DNA of 64,000 bases from Pseudomonadota bacterium (GTDB lineage: Bacteria; Desulfobacterota; Desulfarculia; Desulfarculales; Desulfarculaceae). The DNA is taken from the NCBI GenBank assembly GCA_018819925.1, contig JAHJPG010000096.1, positions 207 to 64,206 on the forward strand. Reading direction: 5' to 3'. Shown one piece after another: positions 4,644 to 61,684 of the stretch. The stretch's first letter is position 1. Every line of letters starts with the position of its first letter. Below the pieces are notes generated by a model, which was not told the DNA's origin, did not search any database, and worked only from the letters and a program-made list of their open reading frames with translations. The translations under genes and the position numbers were made by a program.

Positions 4644-4837
4644 GTGCGTCCGGCTGCGCTCGGTCCTCGACGTAGCCCGTCAGCTACGCCTGCGTCCCTC
4701 GCTCGCCCCAGCGCGCCGCTGGGGGCAAAGCGCGTCGAGCAACAGGTTGCTTTCACCCACCTCGACTGCTCCCGGTGAAACTTGTTTGGGAGCCCAGGCC
4801 TTGGGCCGCCTTGTCTGCCGGCGGCTGGCTGTGCCGG
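4644..4837. repeat. degenerate copy of the palindromic MITE-like element core
   Basis: Shares blocks GTGCGTCCGGCTGCGC, CCTCGACGTAGC-loop-GCTACGCC and CCGCCTTGTCTGCCGGCGGCTGGCTGTGCCGG with the 18109 and 61424 elements; lacks their TIRs. Confidence 0.75.
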
Positions 4838-4956
4838 TTTTGCTTCCAAACCTCATTTAATTGTTTTTCCATAAAAATAGCATAGATACTAATGCACCGT
4901 TCGTTGGCTTCCGGCCTTAGGTGGAAAATTATGGTTGGGCCCACCGTTTTTTGCCC

Positions 4957-4984: not shown

Positions 4985-5011
4985 GACACCATCAAGGGAG
5001 TTGTATACGAA

Positions 5012-5152
5012 ATGCAAAAAGTCCTAACCAACCCGGCCGACATGAGCGCCCGCCAAATGGCGAAAGGCGCTTTCGCACCGGTGTTTGGTGGCTGGCTTTA
5101 TTGGTGGCGTTCACCCATGACGGTGCGCTCCGCCGGGGAGAAGCCAACCTAG
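5012..5152 (+). CDS. trpL: Trp-rich leader peptide (46 aa, ...GAFAPVFGGWLYWWRSP...)
   Basis: AAGGGAG RBS then ATG at 5012, TAG at 5150-5152; W-L-Y-W-W-R; followed by an intrinsic terminator and trpE. Confidence 0.85.
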   Translation: MQKVLTNPADMSARQMAKGAFAPVFGGWLYWWRSPMTVRSAGEKPT

Positions 5153-5181
5153 GCCTTTAAACTCCCAAGCCAGACAGCGAG

Positions 5182-5214
5182 CCCACCGTCAAAGTGACGG
5201 TGGGTTTTTCTTTT
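5182..5214 (+). terminator. attenuator terminator before trpE
   Basis: CCCACCGTCA-AAG-TGACGGTGGG followed by TTTTTCTTTT; the 5' arm can alternatively pair with TGACGGTG at 5118-5125. Confidence 0.9.
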
Positions 5215-5230
5215 GCCGCGAAGGATAATA

Positions 5231-6619
5231 ATGGGAAGCTTGCAAGCCTACACCAAGGAGCTTTTGGCCGACGCCTACACCCCGGTATCAGCCTATGTGA
5301 AGCTGTGCCAAGGGGAGGGAACCTCCTTCTTGTTCGAGAGCGGGGAGGGAGTGGACAGCGTGGGCCGCTACTCCATCGTGGCCTGGGAGCCCATAAGCTC
5401 CCTGCGCCTGGAGCACGGCCAGACCCTGGTGGAGCACGACGGCCGGGAGCAACAGCGCCCGGAGAACGAGTTTTTCGACGCCGCCCAGGAGGTTGGCGAA
5501 TCCTTGACCGTCCAGGAGCTGCCCCCGCTGCCCTTTGTGGGCTCCTTGATGGGCTACGTGGGCTACGAGGCGGTGCGGCTCATGGAGCGCCTGCCTCCGG
5601 GCCCGGTTCATCACCTGCCCGTGGCTTGGCTTTGCTTCCCGGCTTGCTTCGTGGTGTTCGACCATCTGCACCGCAGGCTGACCCTGGTGGCCCTGGCCCA
5701 GGGGGAGGAGGGGGGCCGGGCCAAGCTGGCCGAGATGGTGGATCGGCTGCACCGCCCCGTGCGCCTGGTGTCGCCTCCGGGCACCTTCGAGGTGGTGCCT
5801 CCTCCCCGGGAGCCTTTCCTGGCGGCGGTGGAGCGGGCCAAGGAATACATCATGGCCGGCGACATCTTTCAGGTGGTGCCATCGGCCCGCTTCACCGGCT
5901 CCACCGACATCGATCCCCTGGCGGTGTACCGTTGGCTGCGGGTCAAGAGCCCCTCGCCCTACATGTTTTTCCTGCGCTTCCCGGGATTTTCCCTGGCCGG
6001 CTCCTCGCCCGAGACCCTGGTGAAGGTCAAGGACGGCATGGTGTACCTGAGGCCCATCGCCGGCACCAAGGGCCGCTCGGCCGACCCGGAAGAAGACCTG
6101 GCCCTGGAGCGGGAGATGATGGATTCGGCCAAGGAGCGGGCCGAGCACATCATGCTGGTGGACTTGGCCCGCAACGACGCCGGCCGGGTGAGCCGCTACG
6201 GCACGGTGCAGGTTTCGCCCTACATGACCGTGGAGCGCTACAGCCACGTGATGCACATCGTCTCCCAGGTGAACGGCCAGGTGGCCCCCGAGGTTTCGGT
6301 GTGGGACGCTTTCAAGGCCTGCTTCCCGGCGGGCACCCTTTCCGGCGCGCCCAAGGTCAGGGCCATGGAGATCATCAACGAGCTGGAGGGAGTGGCCCGG
6401 GGCCCCTACGGCGGGGCGGTGGGTTGCTTTGGGCCGGGGCAATACATGGACACCTGCATCGCCATCCGCATGATCCAGTTCGACCAGGGGCGTTTCACCC
6501 TGCAAGCCGGGGCGGGCATAGTGGCCGACAGCGACCCCCAGATGGAATACGAGGAAATCTGCCACAAGGCCGCGCAGGGCCTGGCCGCCCTGAAGCTGGC
6601 CTCGGAGGGTTTGGCATGA
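5231..6619 (+). CDS. trpE: anthranilate synthase component I
   Basis: LLADAYTPVSAY, FLFESGEG..GRYS, IMAGDIFQVV, SPSPYMF, GSSPETL, PIAGTKGR, KERAEHIMLVDLARND, FPAGTLSGAPKVRAMEII; start taken at ATG 5231 after AAGGA. Confidence 0.96.
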   Translation: MGSLQAYTKELLADAYTPVSAYVKLCQGEGTSFLFESGEGVDSVGRYSIVAWEPISSLRLEHGQTLVEHDGREQQRPENEFFDAAQEVGESLTVQELPPLPFVGSLMGYVGYEAVRLMERLPPGPVHHLPVAWLCFPACFVVFDHLHRRLTLVALAQGEEGGRAKLAEMVDRLHRPVRLVSPPGTFEVVPPPREPFLAAVERAKEYIMAGDIFQVVPSARFTGSTDIDPLAVYRWLRVKSPSPYMFFLRFPGFSLAGSSPETLVKVKDGMVYLRPIAGTKGRSADPEEDLALEREMMDSAKERAEHIMLVDLARNDAGRVSRYGTVQVSPYMTVERYSHVMHIVSQVNGQVAPEVSVWDAFKACFPAGTLSGAPKVRAMEIINELEGVARGPYGGAVGCFGPGQYMDTCIAIRMIQFDQGRFTLQAGAGIVADSDPQMEYEEICHKAAQGLAALKLASEGLA

Positions 6620-7260: not shown

Positions 7261-8301
7261 ATGGTCATCACCATGCAGCCGGGCTGCCCCAAGGGCGACG
7301 TGGCCCGGGTTATATCGGCCCTGCGCCGGGCCGGCCTGGAACCGCGCATCATCTCCTCGGACCCCCGGGTGGTCCTGGGAGTGGTGGAGGAGATCAGCCC
7401 GGCCGAGGCCGAGCGCCTGACCCAGGATGTGGGTGGCTTGGACGGGGTGGAGGAAATCACCAGTTTCGAGAAATCCTGGAAGCTGGTGTCCAAGAGCTTC
7501 AAGGCCGAAACAACCCAGGTGCAGTTGGGCTCCTTGAGCGTGGGGGGGCCGGAGGTGCTGGCGGCCGCCGGGCCCTGCGCGGTGGAGAGCCGGGAAAACT
7601 TTTTGGAAACCGCCCTCCTGCTGCACCAGGCCGGGGCCGGGGCGCTCCGGGGCGGGGCCTTCAAACCCCGCACCAGCCCATACTCCTTCCGGGGCATGGG
7701 CGAGGAGGGGCTCAAGATCATGGCCGAGGCCAGGGAGATCACCGGCCTGCCCATCATCACCGAGGTGCTCACCGCCTCGGAGGTGGATATGGTGGCCCGC
7801 TACGCCGACGTGTTGCAGATCGGCACCCGCAACATGCAGAACTTCGCCCTGTTGGAGGCGGTGGGCGAAACCGACCGTCCGGTCCTGCTCAAACGGGGCA
7901 TGATGGCCAGCATCAAGGAGCTGCTGCTCTCGGCCGAGTACATCGTGGCCCGGGGCAACTGGCAGGTGATGCTCTGCGAACGGGGCATCCGCACCTTTGA
8001 GACCGAGACCCGCAACACCCTGGACCTCAGCGCGGTGCCGCTACTCAAGCAATACACCCATTTGCCGGTGGTGGTGGACCCCAGCCACGCGGCGGGCAAG
8101 CGCGAATTAGTGCCGGCCCTGGCCCTGGCCGCGGTGGCCGCCGGGGCGGACGGCATCCTGGTGGAGGTGCACCCCCGCCCAGAGGAGGCCCTGAGCGACG
8201 GCCGCCAGAGCCTGAGGCCCGGGCAGTTCACTGACATGATGGCCGGCTTGCGGCGGGTGGCGGCGGCGGTGGGCCGCCAGTTGCGGGAGGCCGGGGCATG
8301 A
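7261..8301 (+). CDS. aroF: DAHP synthase type I-beta with N-terminal ferredoxin-like/ACT regulatory domain
   Basis: [55 protein letters not shown]; about 70-aa N-terminal extension MVITMQPG... Confidence 0.93.
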
Positions 8302-9548: not shown

Positions 9549-10363
9549 TTCGTCTGGCGGTGATAGGCGACCAGCGGGTGATCCACTCCTTGTCGCCGCG
9601 CATGCACAACGCGGTGCTCAAAGAGGAGGGCCTGGCGGGCAGCTATGTGGCCATCCCCGTGGAGGCGGACCAGCTGGGCGCGTTTCTGGGAAGCCTGGCC
9701 GGGGGGGGCTTTGCCGGAGTGAACGTGACCGTGCCCCACAAGCAGGCGGTGCTGCCATTTTTGGACCACCTGGGCGAGGAAGCCACTACCTTGGGAGCCG
9801 TGAACACCATCGTGGTCAAGGGTGAACGCCTGGAGGGCGGCAACACCGATTGCCCCGGTTTCGCCCAGGCCTTGACCGAAACCGGCTATGCGGCCTCGGG
9901 GCGTCCCGCCCTGGTGGTGGGCGCGGGCGGGGCTGCCCGTTCGGTGGTGCTGGCCCTGGCCCGGCTGGGGGCCGCGCCCCTGTGGGTGGCCGCCCGGCGT
10001 CCCGCCCAGGCCCGGGCCCTGTGCGCCGAGCTAGGCGGCGAGGCCATAGACATGGAACAGGCCGCCCTGGCCGTGGCCGACGCCCGCTTGCTGGTAAACG
10101 CGGCTGCCGCCTCCAGCCCGAAGGAATCGCCCGAACTGGCCGCCTGGGCAGGATCTCTTAACGCGTCCCGCTTGGAGCAGGTGATGGACATCAACTATGG
10201 ACGCAACGACAACTTCTGGGCCGAACTGGCCCAAGCTCACGATGCCCGCTTTGCCGACGGCCTGGTCATGCTGGCCCATCAGGCGGCCCTGAGCTTCACC
10301 CGCTGGACCGGGCGGCCGGTGGCCGGGGCGCGCTTCCTGGCCGCCCTGGAGGGTGCGGCATGA
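9545..10363 (+). CDS. aroE: shikimate dehydrogenase
   Basis: GTG start overlapping aroA stop; HSLSPRMHN, NVTVPHK, GAVNT, NTD, GAGGAA, DGLVMLAHQA. Confidence 0.93.
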   Translation: MIRLAVIGDQRVIHSLSPRMHNAVLKEEGLAGSYVAIPVEADQLGAFLGSLAGGGFAGVNVTVPHKQAVLPFLDHLGEEATTLGAVNTIVVKGERLEGGNTDCPGFAQALTETGYAASGRPALVVGAGGAARSVVLALARLGAAPLWVAARRPAQARALCAELGGEAIDMEQAALAVADARLLVNAAAASSPKESPELAAWAGSLNASRLEQVMDINYGRNDNFWAELAQAHDARFADGLVMLAHQAALSFTRWTGRPVAGARFLAALEGAA

Positions 10364-13531: not shown

Positions 13532-13645
13532 ATGACGGGCAGAGCGGAAATAATGATTGACGGCCAGGGGCGATTTAGCTCCGGGGACGTCTTTTTTTAT
13601 TTTTATTATTTTACCGCCGTCTGCCCAAGGGCTGGGGAGGGTTAA
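13532..13645 (+). CDS. pheL: Phe/Tyr leader peptide (37 aa, ...DVFFYFYYFTAV...)
   Basis: AAGGA upstream of ATG 13532 (alternative ATG 13553); codons TTT TTT TAT TTT TAT TAT TTT at 13592-13612, highly anomalous in a GC3-rich genome; terminator follows. Confidence 0.88.
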   Translation: MTGRAEIMIDGQGRFSSGDVFFYFYYFTAVCPRAGEG

Positions 13646-13672
13646 CGCCGAACTAGGCTAAACCAAGCAACC

Positions 13673-13715
13673 AAGGCCATGGGCAGACTGAGAAAGTCGC
13701 CCATGGCCTTTTTTT
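13673..13715 (+). terminator. attenuator terminator before aroF2-pheA-tyrA
   Basis: AAGGCCATGGGC..GAC-TGAGAAA-GTC..GCCCATGGCCTT + TTTTT; alternative pairing of TGGGCAGAC (13680-88) with GTCTGCCCA (13619-27). Confidence 0.9.
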
Positions 13716-13772
13716 GTTTGGGGCAGGCGGGGCGACCAGAAGTTGGCTCTGGCAATAAGAGGAACGATAAAG

Positions 13773-14675
13773 ATGGCACTGGCAAGTAAAATGGAAAGTA
13801 AAGTGGCAGCGGTCGAGGCGGTGACCGCCGGGGCGGTGGCTCAACGGCTCAAACCCCAGGCGTTGCTGGTAAGCCGCGAGGCCAAATCCGAGGACACCGT
13901 GGTTCACGCCGGGGCGGTGAGCGTGGGCGGCGGCAGTTTTACGGTCATCGCCGGGCCCTGCTCGGTGGAGAACGCCGAGCAGATGCTCTGTACCGCCCAG
14001 TGGGCCAAGCGCTACGGCGCGGCCATTCTCAGGGGCGGGGCTTACAAGCCGCGCACCTCTCCTTACAGCTTCCAGGGGTTGGGCCAGGAAGGCCTGGAGC
14101 TTTTGGCCCAGGCCCGCCGGCTCACCGGCCTGCCGGTGGTCACCGAGGTGATGGACACCAGCGACATAGAGCTGGTGGCCCAATACGCCGACGTGATCCA
14201 GGTGGGGGCACGCAATGTGCAGAACTTCTCCCTGCTGCGCAAGCTGGGCCAGGTGCGCCGTCCCATCCTCATGAAGCGCGGCCTGATGACCACCATCAAG
14301 GAATTCCTCATGGCCGCCGAGTACATCCTGGCTGGGGGCAACGACCAGGTCATCCTGTGCGAGCGAGGCATCCGCACCTTCGAGACGGCCACCCGCAACA
14401 CTCTGGATCTCAGCGCGGTGTGCGTGCTCAAGGAAATGACCCACCTGCCGGTGGTGGTGGACCCCAGCCACGCGGTGGGCAACCGCCGTTACGTCAAGCC
14501 CCTGGCCCGCGCCTCCCTGGCGGTGGGCGCCGACGGCATCATGGTGGAGATGCACTGCACCCCGGAAAAAGCCCTTTGCGACGGCGATCAGTCCCTGACC
14601 CCCAAGGAATTTTCAGCCATGATGGAAGAACTTAAAGCCATGACCGCCCTGCGCCAGGGCTGGTTGGCCTGCTAA
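13773..14675 (+). CDS. aroF: DAHP synthase type I-beta lacking the N-terminal regulatory domain
   Basis: [50 protein letters not shown]; only about 30 aa before the catalytic barrel; start ATG 13773 after AGAGGA. Confidence 0.9.
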
Positions 14676-15823: not shown

Positions 15824-16675
15824 ATGAACTCGGAGGATGATTTTAGAGGCATTGCCTCGCCCGCCCGGCCCGGCTCCGCCGCCGAGCTGACCGTGGGCAT
15901 AATCGGGGCCCAGGGCCGCATGGGCTCGTGGATGCGCCGCCTGCTGGAGCCGGCGGTGGGCCGTCTGCTCACCGCCGACATAAAGGGCGAGCCGGTCACC
16001 CCGGAGTGGGTGGCCGGCTGCCAGGTGATCATCCTGGCCGTGCCGGTGCATGCGGTGGAAGGGGTGATGGAGGCCATCGGCCCCCACACCGACCCCGAGG
16101 GAGTGGTGGTGGATATCTCCTCGCTCAAGCAAATGCCCCTGACCAGCATGCTGGCCCATGCCCGTGGAGAGGTGGTGGGGGCCCATCCCCTGTTCGGCCC
16201 CGGCGCGCCCTCCCTGGAGGGTCAGGTGGTGTTCCTCAGTCAGGGCCGGGGCCGGCGCTGGCTGGCCTGGTTTCGCGGCTTTTTGCGCCAACAGGGAGCC
16301 CGGCCGGTGGTCATGGCCCCAGAGCGCCACGACCGGCTCATGGCCCAGGTGCAGACGCTCAGGCATCTGCTGCTCTACGCCTTTGGCTGGAGCCTGATGC
16401 GCATGGGCTACAGCCCAGAGGCCGACGGCGACATCTCCGGCCCCTGGTTCCGCGAGTTGCTGACCCTTCTGGCCCGCCAGAGCGCCCAACCCGCCGAGCT
16501 CTACGCCGATTTGGCCCTGAACAACCCCGGCGGCCTGGACGCGGCCCGCACCCTGCTGCAAGGCCTGGGCTCCATGGTCTCGGCCCTGGAAGGCAAGGAC
16601 CGGGGGGCCCTGGTGCACACCATGGACGAAGTGGGGGCTTTCATGAAAAACAGCCGAGCCGAACTCTGTGCTTGA
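15824..16675 (+). CDS. tyrA: prephenate dehydrogenase
   Basis: GIIGAQGRMG Rossmann, ILAVP, VDISSLKQ, GAHPLFGP, PERHDRLMAQVQ.L.H; follows pheA. Confidence 0.9.
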   Translation: MNSEDDFRGIASPARPGSAAELTVGIIGAQGRMGSWMRRLLEPAVGRLLTADIKGEPVTPEWVAGCQVIILAVPVHAVEGVMEAIGPHTDPEGVVVDISSLKQMPLTSMLAHARGEVVGAHPLFGPGAPSLEGQVVFLSQGRGRRWLAWFRGFLRQQGARPVVMAPERHDRLMAQVQTLRHLLLYAFGWSLMRMGYSPEADGDISGPWFRELLTLLARQSAQPAELYADLALNNPGGLDAARTLLQGLGSMVSALEGKDRGALVHTMDEVGAFMKNSRAELCA

Positions 16676-16700
16676 CCGGAGCCGAGTTTGGGGGTAATTT
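16672..16700 (+). promoter_or_regulatory. sigma70-like internal promoter for trpDCFBA leader
   Basis: TTGACC-17bp-TAATTT; -35 overlaps tyrA stop codon. Confidence 0.55.
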
Positions 16701-16731
16701 TTGTATACAGAAATTAAACGGAGATTTTGGG

Positions 16732-16803
16732 ATGTTTAACACTGCGTGGCGCTATTGGTGGCGGAACTGGAATAGGAGTGGTCCACCCGCGCCGGGGCGT
16801 TAG
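16732..16803 (+). CDS. trpL: Trp leader peptide A (MFNTAWRYWWRNWNRSGPPAPGR)
   Basis: ACGGAG RBS, ATG 16732, 4 Trp codons in 23 aa, TAG 16801-03. Confidence 0.9.
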   Translation: MFNTAWRYWWRNWNRSGPPAPGR

Positions 16804-16827
16804 GCACCAAAGCTAAAGCAGGCAATC

Positions 16828-16874
16828 ACCGGGGCCGTGGACCACAAGAGGGTTCACGGCCCCGGTTCTTTTTT
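16828..16874 (+). terminator. attenuator terminator A
   Basis: 16-bp stem ACCGGGGCCGTGGACC / GGTTCACGGCCCCGGT + TCTTTTTT; antiterminator GTGGTCCAC(16778-86):GTGGACCAC(16837-45). Confidence 0.92.
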
Positions 16875-16892
16875 GAGGCAAGGCAGGACGGC

Positions 16893-16976
16893 ATGAACAT
16901 CGAGCGGCATACATTCCAAGGCGTTTATGGGTGGCGGTGGTGGCGTTTCACCAAACGGGAGTCCGTTTTGCCCTAG
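16893..16976 (+). CDS. trpL: Trp leader peptide B (MNIERHTFQGVYGWRWWRFTKRESVLP)
   Basis: CAGGAC upstream, ATG 16893, W-R-W-W-R, TAG 16974-76. Confidence 0.88.
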   Translation: MNIERHTFQGVYGWRWWRFTKRESVLP

Positions 16977-17003
16977 ACCGCCCTCAGGCGCCGGGCCAAG
17001 CAA

Positions 17004-17044
17004 CCGCGGACTCCCAAGTGGGGAGTTCGCGGATTTTGTTTTTT
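17004..17044 (+). terminator. attenuator terminator B
   Basis: 12-bp stem CCGCGGACTCCC / GGGAGTTCGCGG + TTTTGTTTTTT; antiterminator GGGAGTCCG(16957-65):CGGACTCCC(17007-15). Confidence 0.92.
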
Positions 17045-17064
17045 AGAGGTGGGAGAAAGCAGCC

Positions 17065-18111
17065 ATGATTCAGGAGGCCATTGCCAAGGCGGTTAGCGGG
17101 CGCGACCTGAGCGAAGAAGAGATGATCGGGGCCATGGACCAGATCATGGAGGGCCGGGCCACCCCCGCCCAGATAGCGGCCCTGCTGGTGGCTCTGCGCA
17201 TCAAGGGGGAGAGCCTGGAGGAGATAAGCGGGGCGGCCCAGGTGATGCGGGCCAAGGCCACCCCGGTGATCTGCCGGGCGGCGGCACGGGGCGAGTTGCT
17301 GGTGGACACGGTGGGCACCGGAGGCGACGAAGCCGGCACCTTCAACGTATCCACCACCACCGCCTTCGTGGTGGCCGGGGCCGGGCTCAAGGTGGCCAAG
17401 CACGGCAACAGGGCCGTGAGCAGTTCCTGCGGGGCGGCGGACCTGCTGGAGAGCCTGGGGGTGCCCCTGGACCTGGACGCCGAACAGATAGCCCTGTGCG
17501 TGGACGAGGTGGGGGTGGGCTTTCTCTTTGCGCCCGCCCTGCACGGGGCCATGCGTCACGCCATCGGCCCCCGCCGCGAGATAGGCCTGCGCACCATCTT
17601 CAACCTGCTGGGCCCCCTCACCAACCCGGCCGGGGCCACGGTGCTGGTGGTGGGGGTCTACGACCCCAAGCTGGTGGAGCCCTTGGCCCACGTGTTGGGC
17701 CGCCTGGGCGCGGTCAGCGCCTTTGTGGTGCATGGCGAGGGCGGCCTGGACGAAATCACCATCACCGGCGCCACCCGCATGGCCCGGCTCAAGGACGGTG
17801 TGGTGGATTTGCTGGAGATAACCCCCGAGGAGGTGGGCTTGACCAGGGCCCGTCTGGAGGATGTGGCCGGTGGCACTGTGGAGCAGTGCCGCGCCCACAC
17901 CCTGGAGGTGCTTTCCGGCCGGCCCGGCCCACGGCGGGACATGGTGCTCATGAACGCGGCGGCGGCCCTGGTGGCCGCGAACCGTGCCCAGGACATGGCC
18001 CAAGGGGTGGCCCTGGCCGCCCAGGTCATCGACTCCGGCGCGGCCCTGGACAAGCTGGAGCATCTGATCTCCTTTGCCAAGGGCCTGCGCCTCAAGGCGG
18101 CGGAGGCCTAG
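17065..18111 (+). CDS. trpD: anthranilate phosphoribosyltransferase
   Basis: DTVGTGGD..TFNVST, KHGNRAVSS.CG.ADLLE, RTIFNLLGPLTNP, HGEGGLDEI. Confidence 0.97.
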   Translation: MIQEAIAKAVSGRDLSEEEMIGAMDQIMEGRATPAQIAALLVALRIKGESLEEISGAAQVMRAKATPVICRAAARGELLVDTVGTGGDEAGTFNVSTTTAFVVAGAGLKVAKHGNRAVSSSCGAADLLESLGVPLDLDAEQIALCVDEVGVGFLFAPALHGAMRHAIGPRREIGLRTIFNLLGPLTNPAGATVLVVGVYDPKLVEPLAHVLGRLGAVSAFVVHGEGGLDEITITGATRMARLKDGVVDLLEITPEEVGLTRARLEDVAGGTVEQCRAHTLEVLSGRPGPRRDMVLMNAAAALVAANRAQDMAQGVALAAQVIDSGAALDKLEHLISFAKGLRLKAAEA

Positions 18112-18369
18112 CCCGCATATTTCATGAGGGTTGGGTGACATTCAACAACAAATCCGTATTCAGAGGGTCGTTATGAAAAAAGTATTCACAATATCAATGT
18201 ACAGTTTGTACCCATCACCGGCACAGCCAGCAGCCGGCAGACAAGGCGTCTGGCAAGCGAGGGCCGCAGGCGTAGCTAAAGCTACGTCGAGGCCCGAGCG
18301 CGGCCAGCAACACCGTATGTCGGTGGCTGGCGCAGCCGGACACACGGCTCTCATGAAATATGCGGGCTA
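18109..18369. mobile_element. 261-bp MITE-like element with perfect 20-bp terminal inverted repeats (copy 1)
   Basis: TAGCCCGCATATTTCATGAG (18109-28) / CTCATGAAATATGCGGGCTA (18350-69); colinear second copy at 61424-61684; no transposase. Confidence 0.85.
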
Positions 18370-18371
18370 AG

Positions 18372-19169
18372 ATGGCCGCATCCGACCTGGGCGTGCTGGC
18401 CCGCATCCTGGAGGCCAAACGGGAGGAGGTGGCCGCGCTAAAGGCCGCCAGGCCCCTGGCCGGGCTGCGCCGGGAGGCCGAGGCCGCCCCGCCGGCCCGC
18501 CCCTTCCTGGGCGCCCTGCGGGGTCACCCCCGCGTGCCGGTGATCGCCGAGATAAAGCGGCGCTCGCCCTCCCGGGGAGAGTTGGCCCCCGGGGAGGGGG
18601 TTCAGGCCAGGGCCCGGGCCTACCAGGCCGGGGGCGCGGCGGCTCTGTCGGTGCTCACCGATATGCCCTTTTTCGGCGGCTCCTTGGAAGATCTGGCCGC
18701 CGCCCGCCAGGCGGTGGACCTGCCCGCCCTGCGCAAGGACTTCATCATCGACCCGGCCCAGATTTATGAGGCCCGGGCGGCCGGGGCCGATGCGGTGCTC
18801 TTGATCGCCGCCTCCCTGGAAGCTCCCTTGCTGGCCGAGTTGTACCACCTTGCCAAGGGCCTGGGCTTGGATGTGCTCATTGAGGTGCATAAGGCCGAAG
18901 AACTGGAGCCGGTGCTGGCCCTGGACCCGCCCCTGGTGGGCATCAACAATCGCGACCTCAAGACCCTGGCCGTGCGCCTGGACACCAGCCTGGAGCTGCG
19001 CCGACTCATCCCGGCGGGCATTACCGTGGTGGCCGAGAGCGGCATTGATGGGCCGGAGCAGGTGAGGGGGCTGCGCGCCGCCGGATTGGACGCCTTTTTG
19101 GTGGGCACCAGCCTCATGCTGGCCCCGGACCCCGCAGCCACCCTGCGCGGCCTGGTGGAGACGGCATGA
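18372..19169 (+). CDS. trpC: indole-3-glycerol phosphate synthase (alternative start 18360 inside MITE TIR)
   Basis: VIAEIKRRSPSRG, ALSVLTD..FFGGS, LRKDFII..QI.EAR..GADAVLLI, GINNRDL, VAESGI. Confidence 0.96.
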   Translation: MAASDLGVLARILEAKREEVAALKAARPLAGLRREAEAAPPARPFLGALRGHPRVPVIAEIKRRSPSRGELAPGEGVQARARAYQAGGAAALSVLTDMPFFGGSLEDLAAARQAVDLPALRKDFIIDPAQIYEARAAGADAVLLIAASLEAPLLAELYHLAKGLGLDVLIEVHKAEELEPVLALDPPLVGINNRDLKTLAVRLDTSLELRRLIPAGITVVAESGIDGPEQVRGLRAAGLDAFLVGTSLMLAPDPAATLRGLVETA

Positions 19170-19730
19170 TTCCCAGGATCAAGATATGCGGCATAACCAA
19201 CTTGGCCGACGCCCTGGCCGCCTGCCGGTTGGGTGCCGACGCCTTGGGCTTCGTCTTGGCCCCCAGCCCCCGCCAGGTGAGCCCGGATCAAGCCAGGGCC
19301 ATCATCGCCCAGCTTCCCCCTCTGGTGGGCACGGTGGGGGTGTTCGTGGACGCCCCGCCGGTGGAGGTGTCCGTGCTGCGGCGTTACTGCGGCCTGGACT
19401 GGGTGCAGCTCCACGGCGACGAAGACGAGGACCAGGCAGCCATGCAGTGGCCCCGGGTGATAAAGGCCCTGAGGGTGGCCCCGGGCCGGGAGCCGGACCC
19501 GGCGGCCTATCCCGGCTGCGCCCTTTTGCTGGACACCTACCACCCCCAAGAGGCCGGGGGCACGGGGCAGAGCTTCGACTGGGGCCTGGCCGTGGACATC
19601 GCCCGGCGACGCCCGATTATCCTGGCTGGGGGCCTGAACCCGGACAACGTGGCCCGGGCCATAGAGCAAGTTCAACCATATGCCGTGGACGTTTCCAGCG
19701 GCGTGGAAAAAGAGAAAGGCGTCAAAGACC

Positions 19731-20956
<1,226 letters not shown>

Positions 20957-20960
<4 letters not shown>

Positions 20961-21760
20961 ATCCCGATCTGCGCGAAAAATTCGCCGCCGCGGCCCAGCA
21001 GGGCCGGGCCGCCTTTGTGCCCTATGTCACCGGCGGCTTTCCCGACGCCGACACCTGCCTGGAGCTGATCCTGGCCCTGGATGAGTTGGGTTCCGAGGTG
21101 ATCGAGGTGGGCATACCCTTTTCCGACCCCCTGGCCGACGGCCCCACTATTCAGCTCTCCAGCCAAAAGGCCCTGGAGGCCGGAGCCACCCCCGCCAAGG
21201 TGCTGGACACCATGGCGCGGGCCGCAGCCAAGACCAAGGCCGCCCTGGTGACCATGACCTACGTCAACCCGGTGCTGGCCATGGGCTACGAGGAGTTCGC
21301 CCGCCGGGCCTCCGGGTCCGGGGTCAGCGGGGTGATAATCCCCGACCTTCCCCCCGAGGAGGCCGGCCAGTGGCTTCAGGCCTGCCAAACCCACGGCTTG
21401 GACCCGGTGTTCATGGCCGCCCCGGGCACCCCCATGGAGCGCCTGGACCGCATCTTGGCGGTGGGCGGTGGCTTTTTGTACTACGTGTCCATGGATGGCG
21501 TGACCGGCGCGGACCTGGAATTGGGCCCGGAGCGCCTGGCGGCCATGCAGCGGGTGCGCGCCCGCTCCTCTTTGCCCGTGGCGGTGGGCTTCGGGGTGGC
21601 CACCCCGGCCCAGGCCGCCGCCCTGGCCCCGGTGGCCGACGGGGTGGTGGTGGGCAGCGCTCTGGTGCGCCAGGTGCATCAAGCCAAGACGCCCCAAGAG
21701 GCGGTGGAGGCGGTGCGGGGATTGGCCGGGGAACTGCGCCAGGCCTTGTTGGTGCGCTAA
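20957..21760 (+). CDS. trpA: tryptophan synthase alpha chain
   Basis: [62 protein letters not shown]. Confidence 0.97.
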
Positions 21761-60518: not shown

Positions 60519-61433
60519 CTAGCCTCGGGGGTGGTGGCGGCGATGCACCTGCACCAGCCGCTGGCGGGTGACGTGGGTGTAGACCTGGGTGGTGCCGATG
60601 TCGCTGTGCCCCAGCATGAGCTGCACGCTCCTGAGGTCGGCCCCGCCCTCCAAAAGATGGGTGGCGAAGGTGTGGCGCAGGGTGTGGGGGGTGACCGGCC
60701 CGTTTATGCCCGCCTTTTGCAGATATTTGTGGATGATTTTCCAAAGACCCATGCGGCTCAGGGAGTCGCCCCGGTTGTTCAGAAAAACCTCCTCGCGCCG
60801 CTTGCCCTTGAGCAGGCGGCTCCGGGGGCCTTCCAGATAGGCGGTCAGGACCTTGATGGCGGTTTCATGCACCGGCACCAGGCGCTGTTTGTCGCCTTTG
60901 CCATGCACCAAGAGGCAACCCACCTGGAACTGCACGTCGCCCACTCCCAGGCTGATGACCTCGCTCACCCGAAGCCCGGCGGCGTACATCAGCTCCAAAA
61001 TGGTCCGGTCCCTTTGCCCCAGATCGGTCAGTGGGTCCGGAGCGTCCAAGAGGCGTTCCACCTCGTCGCGGCTGAGGAAATAGGGCAGGCCGCCGGGCAG
61101 GCGGGGACCCACCAGGCCGGCCAGGGGGTCGGCGCCCAACTCGCCCCGGCGCAGCAGCCAGGCCACCAGGCCCCGGGCGGCGGACAGGCGCCGGGCCCGG
61201 GTGCGGGGCGAGAGCCCATTTTGCGCCGCCCGGGCCAAAAAGGCCACCATGTGCACCGATTCCACCTGTTCCCAGCCAGCCACCCCCTCCTTGAGCAAGA
61301 AGCCGGTGAGGTCGGCCAGGTCCTCGGCATAGGAGGCCACCGAGTTGGCGGCCAGGCCCCGCTCGGCGGCCAGGTGGGCCAGATAGCTGTCCACCGCCTG
61401 GTGCAAGGCCGGGGCCTGGGGATCAGCCCGCAT
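60519..61433 (-). CDS. xerD: site-specific tyrosine recombinase XerD (alternative start TTG 61406)
   Basis: ERGLA.NS..SY..DL, RDR.ILELMYAAGLRVSE, GKGDKQRLVP, PHTLRHTFATHLL.GGADLRSVQ.MLGH.DI.TTQ.YTHV. Confidence 0.95.
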   Translation of the reverse strand: MRADPQAPALHQAVDSYLAHLAAERGLAANSVASYAEDLADLTGFLLKEGVAGWEQVESVHMVAFLARAAQNGLSPRTRARRLSAARGLVAWLLRRGELGADPLAGLVGPRLPGGLPYFLSRDEVERLLDAPDPLTDLGQRDRTILELMYAAGLRVSEVISLGVGDVQFQVGCLLVHGKGDKQRLVPVHETAIKVLTAYLEGPRSRLLKGKRREEVFLNNRGDSLSRMGLWKIIHKYLQKAGINGPVTPHTLRHTFATHLLEGGADLRSVQLMLGHSDIGTTQVYTHVTRQRLVQVHRRHHPRG

Positions 61434-61684
61434 ATTTCATGAAGGCCGTGTGTCCGGCTGCGCCAGCCACCGGCATATGGTGTTGCCGGCTGCGCCCGGG
61501 CCTCGACGTAGCTATGGCTACGCCATCAGCCCTCGCTTGCCGGCCGCCTTGTCTGCCGGCGGCTGGCTGTGCCGGCGATGGGTACAAACTGTACCTCGAT
61601 AATGCGAACACTTGCTTCATAATGGCCCCATGAATACTGATCCGTTGCTAATTGCCACCCATCCCTCATGAAATATGCGGGCTA
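61424..61684. mobile_element. 261-bp MITE-like element (copy 2, inverted relative to copy 1)
   Basis: CAGCCCGCATATTTCATGAA (61424-43) / CTCATGAAATATGCGGGCTA (61665-84); colinear with copy 1, about 86% identical by manual alignment. Confidence 0.85.

Follow-up and report, generated by a model that had tools for sequence, protein, structure and literature searches.

Organization of the tyrA–trpD interval

In an uncultured Desulfarculaceae bacterium, the gap between tyrA and the trpDCFBA genes consists, as read from the sequence, of two complete Trp attenuators placed one behind the other, termed modules A and B (Table 1; positions are those of the window, the whole 64,000-nucleotide stretch of DNA that was analysed). 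The start of trpD, which was identified by its match to TIGR01245 (5e-119), lies at position 17065. An earlier note on this DNA had described such a tandem before trpDCFBA, with four Trp codons and a 16-bp terminator in module A and three Trp codons and a 12-bp terminator in module B, and each of these elements was found. The transcript of the leader is predicted to be ~350 nt in length and to carry both modules, so that two apparently complete sensing units, each equipped with its own terminator, would share one leader and one signal. No terminator-like site was detected by the terminator scan in the interval between tyrA and leader A, in agreement with the earlier reading that tyrA is not followed by a clear terminator, and the stop codon of tyrA (16673-75) falls within the putative -35 element.

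Table 1. Features of the tyrA–trpDCFBA region (positions in the window)
Feature	Position	Strand	Basis
tyrA (prephenate dehydrogenase), end gene of the upstream Phe/Tyr-attenuated unit	15824..16675	+	terminator scan, NCBIfam matches
Putative sigma-70 promoter of the trpD leader: -35 TTGACC 16672-77, spacer 17 nt, -10 TAATTT 16695-16700	16672..16700	+	sequence reading
Near-perfect 22-bp palindrome TAATTTTTGTATACAGAAATTA, GTATAC box at centre (16703-08); candidate operator or start-site element	16695..16716	.	sequence reading
Shine-Dalgarno GGAG of leader A, 8 nt 5′ of ATG	16720..16723	+	sequence reading, Shine-Dalgarno energies
Leader peptide A ORF MFNTAWRYWWRNWNRSGPPAPGR; ATG 16732, stop TAG 16801-03	16732..16803	+	sequence reading, orthologues
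Segment 1A, Trp-codon region; pairs with segment 2A if ribosome-free	16747..16763	+	MFE fold, untranslated leader
Segment 2A, antiterminator 5′ strand; core GTGGTCCAC 16778-86, extension CCGCGCCGGGG	16778..16797	+	complementarity, folds
Intrinsic terminator A: stem 16828-16866 (16 pairs, 12 G-C, loop ACAAGAG), U tract TCTTTTTT 16867-74	16828..16874	+	terminator scan
Shine-Dalgarno-like AAGGCAGGA of leader B	16880..16888	+	Shine-Dalgarno energy -7.6 kcal/mol
Leader peptide B ORF MNIERHTFQGVYGWRWWRFTKRESVLP; stop TAG 16974-76	16893..16976	+	ORF reading, orthologues
Segment 2B, antiterminator 5′ strand GGGAGTCCG	16957..16965	+	complementarity, folds
Intrinsic terminator B: stem 17004-17032 (12 pairs, loop AAGTG), U tract ATTTTGTTTTTT to 17044	17004..17044	+	terminator scan, hairpin energy
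trpD, trpC, trpF, trpB and trpA (regulated genes)	17065..21760	+	NCBIfam matches

Both leader ORFs are predicted to be translated. Leader A contains four Trp codons among 23 (at 16747, 16756, 16759, and 16768), and leader B contains three among 27 (at 16932, 16938, and 16941). The Shine-Dalgarno sequences of A-type leaders are strong (mean -7.0 kcal/mol). The ribosome binding site that had been ascribed to leader B is recognizable in this genome (Table 1), but its counterparts are weak in many relatives and on average no better than shuffled sequences (mean -5.2 kcal/mol vs. -4.6 kcal/mol); translation of leader B is therefore a prediction only. The terminator A hairpin has an energy of -34.4 kcal/mol, and folding is much better than that of shuffled sequences for module A (z -4.2) and moderately better for module B (z -2.4). 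The main ground for excluding a chance origin is conservation: the arrangement of two modules, each with Trp codons clustered in frame, is seen again and again across 16 genomes.

Predicted alternative pairings within the modules

In each module the antiterminator 5′ strand lies 10–15 nt past the last Trp codon, and the antiterminator overlaps the 5′ arm of the module's own terminator. The perfect 9-bp complementarity claimed previously holds in both cases: the core of segment 2A is the exact reverse complement of GTGGACCAC at 16837-45, and segment 2B is that of CGGACTCCC at 17007-15. The segment 2A duplex (-25.3 kcal/mol) was equalled by 2 of 300 shuffles and the extended segment 2B duplex (-23.8 kcal/mol) by none of 300. 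Pairing between the Trp-codon region and the antiterminator strand (1:2) was seen in the minimum free energy (MFE) folds of both modules of this genome.

Equilibrium folds of the full leader selected the terminators every time; the switch must therefore be kinetic, and only folds of the nascent transcript are informative. In such folds, the segment 2A antiterminator formed when a ribosome was parked on W9/W10, and the module B antiterminator formed with the ribosome on the Trp codons and was lost with the ribosome at the stop codon. The stop codon of module A sits downstream of the antiterminator core, and a ribosome positioned there left the 9-bp core uncovered, which implies that termination in module A under Trp excess needs either 1:2 pairing or appropriate timing.

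Comparative evidence supports the antiterminators in both types of module. The core pairs are kept at 93% in the A type, with one compensatory column in which A-U and G-C switch cleanly, and at ~95% in the B type, where three changes are compensatory and the pairing register has a clear optimum. Compensatory changes are few overall in both types, and the antiterminator duplex of several individual modules is no better than that of shuffled GC-rich sequence. Because the antiterminator strands of one genus (g1) were out of register with the rest in a MAFFT alignment of all B modules, the evidence for the B type was drawn from covariation in a subset and from an alignment-free swap test. Cognate antiterminator–terminator pairs were better than swapped pairs (permutation p = 1e-4), and the module's own terminator arm was preferred over that of the other module in 9 of 12 within-genome comparisons from six genomes, including both of those possible in the present genome (2/2). 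A relay between the modules, in which the 3′ arm of terminator A (4A), once freed, would pair with the 5′ arm of terminator B (3B), was rejected: this duplex has an energy of -9.8 kcal/mol here, and the cognate mean (-15.1 kcal/mol) is no better than the value reached when 4A is taken from another genome (-14.8 kcal/mol), so that the complementarity reflects a shared CCGYGGAC motif only.

Serial attenuation as the favored reading

We consider it probable, at roughly 70%, that the trpDCFBA leader comprises two autonomous, classical ribosome-mediated Trp attenuators in series, which act as independent checkpoints. Transcripts would start at the putative promoter whose -35 element contains the tyrA stop codon; read-through from the terminator-less DAHPS-pheA-tyrA unit is probably a second source. 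With Trp-tRNA in good supply, the ribosome would move past the Trp codons, the antiterminator strand would be taken up by segment 1 or by the ribosome, and formation of the terminator hairpin would stop the polymerase at ~16874 (A) or ~17044 (B). If, instead, little tRNA-Trp is charged, the ribosome would presumably stall at the Trp cluster and leave the downstream antiterminator strand free to pair with the terminator 5′ arm ahead of synthesis of the 3′ arm, allowing the polymerase to continue. As the polymerase must pass both modules, read-through into trpD would be the product of two probabilities. If both terminators are used in vivo, as this reading supposes, the response may start from a reduced basal level, have its threshold moved toward deeper starvation, and rise more steeply, and transcripts coming from the Phe/Tyr unit would also be filtered.

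Distribution and history of the modules

The trpD leader could be read in 28 Desulfarculales genomes, and the suggested check of these orthologous leaders found two modules in 16 of them, representing six genera and two families, and a single module in the other 12. The culturable relative Desulfocarbo indianensis SCBM also carries the tandem. The anatomy read in the present genome is conserved throughout the tandem genomes: in both modules the leader ORF still has its start codon, carries Trp codons clustered in frame, and stops close to the antiterminator strand; the antiterminator complementarity and the hairpin are likewise retained, and a clear U tract is kept by all modules except module A of one genome (G020) and module B of another (G018, in which the terminator is poor). 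The two types can be told apart across genera. A-type modules are marked by the terminator arm GGCCGTGGACC and by peptide tails such as GPPAP and PRAAVV, and B-type modules by the arm CCGCGGRCAGAC or ACTCC and by tails such as ESVLP and RSVPP. A-type leaders occur in the 16 tandem genomes and in 9–10 single-module genomes, whereas the B type is the sole module in two (G049 and G013). The loss of modules requires at least four changes of state along the trpD tree. The predominance of A, with two cases of B, among the single-module genomes points to an old duplication that was followed by repeated losses. Trp codons number 2–4 in A modules and 3–4 in B modules with no consistent difference between the types across the relatives, which gives no support to the earlier proposal that four and three Trp codons set two thresholds.

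This history raises the question of whether the tandem is a redundant relic of the duplication, in which only one module has kept a regulatory role, the other being neutral or serving as a back-up terminator. The repeated losses are what a relic would show, as are the weak Shine-Dalgarno sequences of many B leaders and the defects in G018 and G020, and the loss of one module from 12 relatives indicates that the second checkpoint is dispensable. On the other hand, the non-Trp codons of the leaders have diverged almost completely among the tandem genomes, while the antiterminator pairs covary in both types and the whole set of features listed above persists in both modules across 16 genomes and two families. 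Such retention over large distances is not expected of neutral sequence, and a relic is accordingly unlikely.

Outside the Desulfarculaceae, no tandem was found among 80 trpD loci of other taxa, one of which has a single Trp leader. A pattern scan of genome contigs for a T run flanked by two TGGTGGCG boxes gave, among the matches listed, no case in which those that passed the small-ORF filter had paired terminators; two matches from that list were inspected, and both lie inside coding regions. The scan carries no weight as evidence of absence.

A single putative promoter upstream of module A

The leader is laid out with one promoter, itself putative. Its TTGAC box, and the spacing of this box to the first leader ATG, are kept in most of 22 relatives, although the box is not evident in two of the 22 leaders compared (G012 and G013). 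A strict-consensus promoter scan did not call this site, owing to its weak -10 element. The GTATAC box accompanies the first-leader promoter in 16 of the 22 leaders and, in the present genome, also marks the leaders of trpE and trpB2. No homologue of TrpR (PF01371) is present in the genome, so the box is not the classical trp operator, a candidate role that was rejected, and attenuation is the recognizable form of Trp control here.

A division of labor between the modules was also considered, in which A is a Trp-conditional end, or insulator, of DAHPS-pheA-tyrA, and B attenuates transcripts from a separate promoter located within module A or behind it. The lack of a tyrA terminator and the position of the tyrA stop codon within the -35 box fit such an insulator, as does the separate Phe/Tyr attenuation of the upstream unit, whose read-through would otherwise reach trpD irrespective of Trp. 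However, only 18 nt separate the terminator A U tract from the leader B ATG, and the promoter scan, which had also missed the putative leader A promoter, found no promoter-like site in this gap. In the 22 leaders, moreover, the conserved -35 box, and the GTATAC box where present, are confined to the region upstream of the first leader, with no GTATAC box between A and B; a promoter between the modules, which the earlier note had named as a circumstance speaking against its proposal, is thus not indicated. Single-module relatives also share the same tyrA–trpD adjacency. Taken together, a division of labor appears quite improbable. That terminated leader RNAs (roughly 160-nt) and/or the leader peptides act in trans, with two modules yielding two products, would be compatible with serial attenuation and has a precedent in Sinorhizobium rnTrpL and peTrpL, whose functions in trans are reported in two papers (PMC6614838, PMC7298713), but it is very improbable, given that one module is repeatedly lost and that the peptide tails conserved within the A and B types are encoded by the antiterminator strands, such that RNA pairing explains them.

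Comparison with known attenuators

Leader-peptide attenuation is a textbook mechanism that is usually described as involving one attenuator per operon. Like Escherichia coli trpL, each module here opens with a short ORF in which Trp codons are clustered and closes with an intrinsic terminator, and its 1:2, 2:3, and 3:4 pairings are predicted to exclude one another; the leader as a whole lies just 5′ of the regulated genes. Unlike trpL, two complete units lie serially in one leader, and this leader precedes trpD rather than trpE. There are three to four Trp codons per module instead of two, the genome is without TrpR, and the stop codon of module A is downstream of the antiterminator core. No Rfam family matched the leader, and Trp_leader (RF00513) gave no hit even at E <= 10; as this model is enterobacterial, the missing match has no bearing on the mechanism.

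A literature search found no description of tandem leader-peptide attenuators that respond to the same amino acid, which agrees with the impression stated in the earlier note; the published tandems that were found respond to different signals (mgtCBR) or to antibiotics (erm), or are synthetic. The nearest parallels in layout are found among RNA sensors. Tandem T-box leaders were reportedly described by Gutierrez-Preciado, Jensen, Yanofsky and Merino in 2005 for the trp operons of some Firmicutes. These are likewise two serial antitermination units for the same signal (tRNA-Trp charging), with their own terminators, before Trp biosynthesis genes. They read uncharged tRNA by RNA-RNA contact, however, whereas a translating ribosome on a leader ORF would be the reader here; no T-box or riboswitch model in Rfam matched the trpD leader, and its sensing element is an ORF with Trp codons. 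The Desulfovibrio thiSGHFE leader has two THI elements with a terminator each (PMC545781). Such tandem THI riboswitches similarly place two complete units for the same ligand and two terminators in one leader, and they raise the same question of a threshold shift, cooperativity, or a recombination remnant, but their ligand binds the RNA directly, without translation. If the pair in the trpD leader operates as proposed, it would be a conserved, ribosome-based counterpart of tandem T-boxes and riboswitches for a single amino acid.

Among leaders with two peptides, that of Salmonella mgtCBR has tandem attenuators, mgtM for ATP and mgtP for proline (PMC3641672). Its two short ORFs, which act independently, each steer alternative RNA structures, an organization resembling that of the trpD leader. 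By contrast, the two mgtCBR signals differ, whereas both ORFs are Trp-rich here, and neither a Pro run nor an A-rich tract is a conserved feature of either ORF in these leaders and their orthologues. The authors of the mgtCBR study contrast that leader with one having two intrinsic terminators, and note that biosynthetic genes are controlled by “normally, a single attenuator” (PMC3641672). The erm resistance leaders also encode two leader peptides (ermBL and ermBL2; PMC8274638), which share one cue and act by ribosome stalling, as is supposed here; in that case, however, stalling is drug-induced and the resistance gene is controlled translationally, with neither amino-acid sensing nor two terminators. 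An engineered tandem of pT181 antisense attenuators altered both the input sensitivity and the response time, and was built together with a single-attenuator gene into a single-input module (bioRxiv 10.1101/003335). It resembles the trpD leader in having two transcription attenuators, in this case identical ones, in series, but it is synthetic and senses antisense RNA rather than a ribosome.

Attenuators in the wider Trp and aromatic regulon

In each of the 26 genomes whose region upstream of trpE could be read, that gene is preceded by a single Trp attenuator. In the present genome, trpDCFBA has two attenuators, trpB2 has one, and so does trpE-trpG (with shikimate genes), and DAHPS-pheA-tyrA is preceded by a Phe/Tyr leader (FFYFYYF). 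Leader-peptide attenuation therefore appears to be the standard device of this regulon. Natural controls are built into this system, namely, sister genomes that retain only A or only B, and the single attenuators of trpE and trpB2 in the same genome; hence it is testable whether stacking independent switches shifts the threshold only or also sharpens and delays the response. Since the large cluster of aromatic amino-acid genes has no terminators between its units, it might be partitioned purely by conditional terminators.

It is tempting to speculate, although this is less likely than not, that the Trp regulon forms a natural RNA-level “single-input module,” in which one signal, ribosome stalling for want of Trp-tRNA, is read through differing numbers of attenuators per unit. 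If so, the entry step would turn on at mild Trp shortage, whereas the five later steps would await a deeper or more prolonged one or would follow at a later time, and lineages without module A or B would have a retuned order. Such behavior would match that engineered with single and tandem attenuators in synthetic circuits. A Trp-Trp-Arg motif, TGGTGGCG, is common to all four Trp leaders of this genome. A genome-wide scan for small Trp-rich ORFs before terminators returned 1793 ORFs, 65 of which were followed by a hairpin and a T run; the scan is unspecific in a genome of 63.5% G+C, yet it exposed the trpB2 leader.

Anatomy of the tyrA-trpD Spacer

Two predicted Trp leader-peptide attenuators (modules A and B) stand in series before trpDCFBA, as an earlier note had proposed from the sequence alone, and a re-reading of the sequence showed that description to be accurate overall. 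In both modules the antiterminator is built from 9-mers that are exact reverse complements, each overlapping the 5′ arm of the cognate terminator. trpC, trpF, trpB, and trpA follow trpD, all with strong NCBIfam matches. The suspicion that tyrA lacks a clear terminator was likewise borne out, inasmuch as no terminator-like site was found between tyrA and leader A; an Rfam search of the tandem leader gave no match. The tandem observation is confirmed, and its interpretation is supported as regards the anatomy.

Features of the tandem leader and of the associated aromatic units (window positions unless a contig is named)
Feature	Position	Description
tyrA	15824-16675	strong NCBIfam match
tyrA-trpD spacer	16672-17064
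Putative -35 box	16672-16677	TTGACC, includes tyrA stop codon; followed by 17 nt and TAATTT
22-bp palindrome, trpD	16703-16708 (centre)	single GTATAC at centre
Shine-Dalgarno of leader A		GGAG, 8 nt before leader A
Leader A	16732-16803	MFNTAWRYWWRNWNRSGPPAPGR
Terminator A	16828-16866	16-pair G+C-rich hairpin, then TCTTTTTT
Interval before leader B	16867-16892	its U-rich tract a possible ribosome standby or S1 site
Leader B	16893-16976	MNIERHTFQGVYGWRWWRFTKRESVLP; begins 18 nt past U tract of terminator A
Terminator B	17004-17032	12-pair hairpin, then ATTTTGTTTTTT, then trpD ribosome site
trpD	17065-18111	strong NCBIfam match
GTATAC box, trpE	5003-5008	single
trpE attenuator leader	5012-5152	W..WW; ...GGWLYWWRSPMTVRSAGEKPT
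trpE attenuator terminator	5182-5205	CCCACCGTC/GACGGTGGG; attenuator spans 5012-5215
DAHP synthase paralogues	7261-8301; 13743-14675	different amino-acid controls
Phe/Tyr leader peptide	13532-13645	FFYFYYF; MTGRAEIMIDGQGRFSSGDVFFYFYYFTAVCPRAGEG
Phe/Tyr leader, antiterminator, and terminator	13532-13718	terminator arm GGGCAGAC
GTATAC box, trpB2	contig C125, minus strand, near 6476	GTATACGGTATAC
trpB2 Trp leader	contig C125, minus strand, about 10148-10330 (reverse-complement coordinates)	peptide MHKTHPGLMNLAWWRWRPPGRGPSAL
trpB2 leader terminator	contig C125	GCCGCGGGCCCCAGGGCCCGCGGC and U tract
MITE-like element, 257 bp	18111-18367; 61425-61681	18-bp terminal inverted repeats GCCCGCATATTTCATGAG

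Distribution and Conservation of the Two Modules

Related trpD loci belong to Desulfarculaceae, including Desulfocarbo indianensis, Dethiosulfatarculus sandiegensis, and several MAGs. Among the 37 species genomes of the order Desulfarculales, the region upstream of trpD could be read in 28 (minus-strand loci being reverse-complemented beforehand), and the comparison of orthologous leaders that the earlier note had suggested revealed two Trp leader-terminator modules in series in 16 genomes and one module in 12. The tandem genomes comprise eight of genus g1, two each of g2, g5, and g8, one of g6, and one of a second family; when 80 trpD loci from other taxa were compared, the tandem was found only in Desulfarculaceae. 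Two types of module are recognizable across genera: the A-type, with terminator arm GGCCGTGGACC, antiterminator GGTCCRC, and peptide tails GPPAP or PRAAVV, and the B-type, with arm CCGCGG followed by ACTCC or RCAGAC, antiterminator GAGTCCG or GGTCTGYCC, and tails ESVLP or RSVPP. Single modules are A-type in nine or ten genomes and B-type in two (G049 and G013). The tandem state is scattered over the trpD tree, whose well-supported branches cannot be reconciled with fewer than four changes; the simplest history would be an old duplication preceding the split of the genera, after which one module or the other was lost repeatedly.

Apart from the Trp codons and the tail encoded by the antiterminator, the leader peptides retain almost no similarity. 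All modules nevertheless keep an ATG and a reading frame that stays open for 20-29 codons, with 2-4 clustered in-frame Trp codons, as well as a hairpin and, beginning 10-15 nt past the last Trp codon, an antiterminator strand; a clear U tract is kept in all except module A of G020 and module B of G018. In the B-type, the antiterminator core of nine pairs is about 95% intact and shows three compensatory changes, and pairing is 73% in register vs. 31-44% when the partner is shifted by 1-3 columns. In the A-type, seven core pairs are 93% kept, with one clean A-U to G-C switch that tracks a T/C difference in the terminator arm. In an alignment-free test, the antiterminator region of each module formed a more favorable duplex with the cognate terminator arm than with arms taken from different modules (mean -15.9 vs. 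-13.9 kcal/mol; permutation p = 1e-4). When A and B of one genome were set against each other, the antiterminator favored the arm of its own module in 9 of 12 comparisons, including both in this genome. These pairing statistics are modest figures from related sequences, and in several individual modules the antiterminator duplex has no advantage over shuffled G+C-rich sequence; covariation and cognate pairing are therefore supportive of, but not conclusive for, selection on both modules. Translation of leader B is the point in main doubt, because its Shine-Dalgarno sequence, adequate here, is weak in many relatives.

Folding and Mechanism

When modules A and B are folded as untranslated RNA, the region of the Trp codons is base-paired to the antiterminator strand (1:2 pairing) and the terminator forms; module A is far more stable than shuffled sequences (z -4.2) and module B moderately so (z -2.4). 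Since terminators were chosen in every equilibrium fold of the complete leader, the decision must be kinetic, as in the classical system. In nascent-RNA folds, with the transcript cut before the 3′ arm of the terminator and a ribosome placed at a set position, both modules formed the antiterminator when the ribosome stood on the Trp codons. Moving the ribosome to the stop codon abolished the antiterminator in module B, whereas the 9-bp core of module A sat just behind the ribosome, so that termination there in Trp excess must use 1:2 pairing or timing; this slightly weakens the fit of module A to the mechanism. The antiterminator strand of module A (16783-16797) codes for Gly-Pro-Pro-Ala-Pro, which is kept within genus g1. 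A slow Pro-Pro stretch could hold the ribosome longer on this strand, but the conservation may be just a consequence of RNA pairing.

The best-supported reading of the sequence is that modules A and B act as two independent checkpoints in series; a specific relay between them was not supported. Read-through into trpD would then be the product of the read-through probabilities of both modules, which would lower the basal level and move the threshold to stronger starvation. The same argument was made for tandem THI riboswitches by Rodionov et al. (PMC545781), and the same effect was demonstrated with engineered tandem attenuators (bioRxiv 10.1101/003335). With no terminator seen behind tyrA, the tandem would also act as a gate for transcripts that start at the Phe/Tyr-controlled promoter. 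An internal promoter, which the earlier note had considered as a way of making A and B separate units, is not seen as far as the sequence tells: a promoter scan detected nothing in the 18 nt that separate the terminator A U tract from the ATG of leader B, and no GTATAC box stands between the two modules.

The full-text literature, in which subscription journals are thinly covered and an older mention is possible, yielded no description of two leader-peptide attenuators for the same amino acid in series, in keeping with the earlier note, to which such tandems were unfamiliar, and nothing on Desulfarculaceae. The only related systems found were mgtCBR, erm leaders with two peptides (PMC8274638), and synthetic tandem attenuators. 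The Salmonella mgtCBR leader senses two different signals, whereas both modules here are for Trp; its authors regard a single attenuator as normal for biosynthetic genes and contrast their leader with one carrying two intrinsic terminators (PMC3641672). The components are textbook ones, but their arrangement in series for one signal is conserved and old, and apparently has not been described before. Its interest lies chiefly in a module series that already exists in nature: relatives that carry A alone, B alone, or the pair, together with single-module trpE and trpB2 in one cell, provide a ready-made experimental series.

Neighboring Aromatic Units and Promoter Elements

The window carries a three-unit aromatic cluster: the trpE unit, the DAHP synthase-pheA-tyrA unit, and the tandem with trpDCFBA. 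Exactly one Trp attenuator precedes trpE in each of the 26 genomes whose upstream region could be read. Here it is followed by trpE, trpG, DAHP synthase, aroA, aroE, aroK-aroB, aroC, and aroQ. The whole shikimate pathway thus lies downstream of trpEG, and these common-pathway genes would be subject to Trp control in the absence of internal promoters. The Phe/Tyr attenuator precedes the second DAHP synthase, pheA, and tyrA, and its terminator arm resembles those of B-type Trp modules of relatives. A fourth Trp leader lies directly upstream of trpB2, which encodes a TrpB-like PLP enzyme (NF009057, 1e-220).

The -35 box TTGAC is conserved upstream of the first trpD leader, and 16 of 22 genomes carry one or two GTATAC boxes in the stretch from the -10 region to that leader. 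In this genome all three Trp-unit promoters have GTATAC past the -10 region and ahead of the leader ATG, the GTATACGGTATAC of trpB2 being a single occurrence genome-wide; the box is absent from the Phe/Tyr-leader promoter. As the hexamer is under-represented in the genome (154 sites vs. about 450 expected), additional control at the promoter level may exist. No TrpR homolog was found in the genome; the box may therefore be the operator of some other Trp-responsive factor.

The MITE-like element, for which BLAST gave 97 matches in the genome (about two dozen full-length copies among the matches listed, 74-86% identity), sits exactly between trpD and trpC, genes that abut or overlap in relatives. 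Fragments of it also occur upstream of the trpE promoter, at about 4650-4850.
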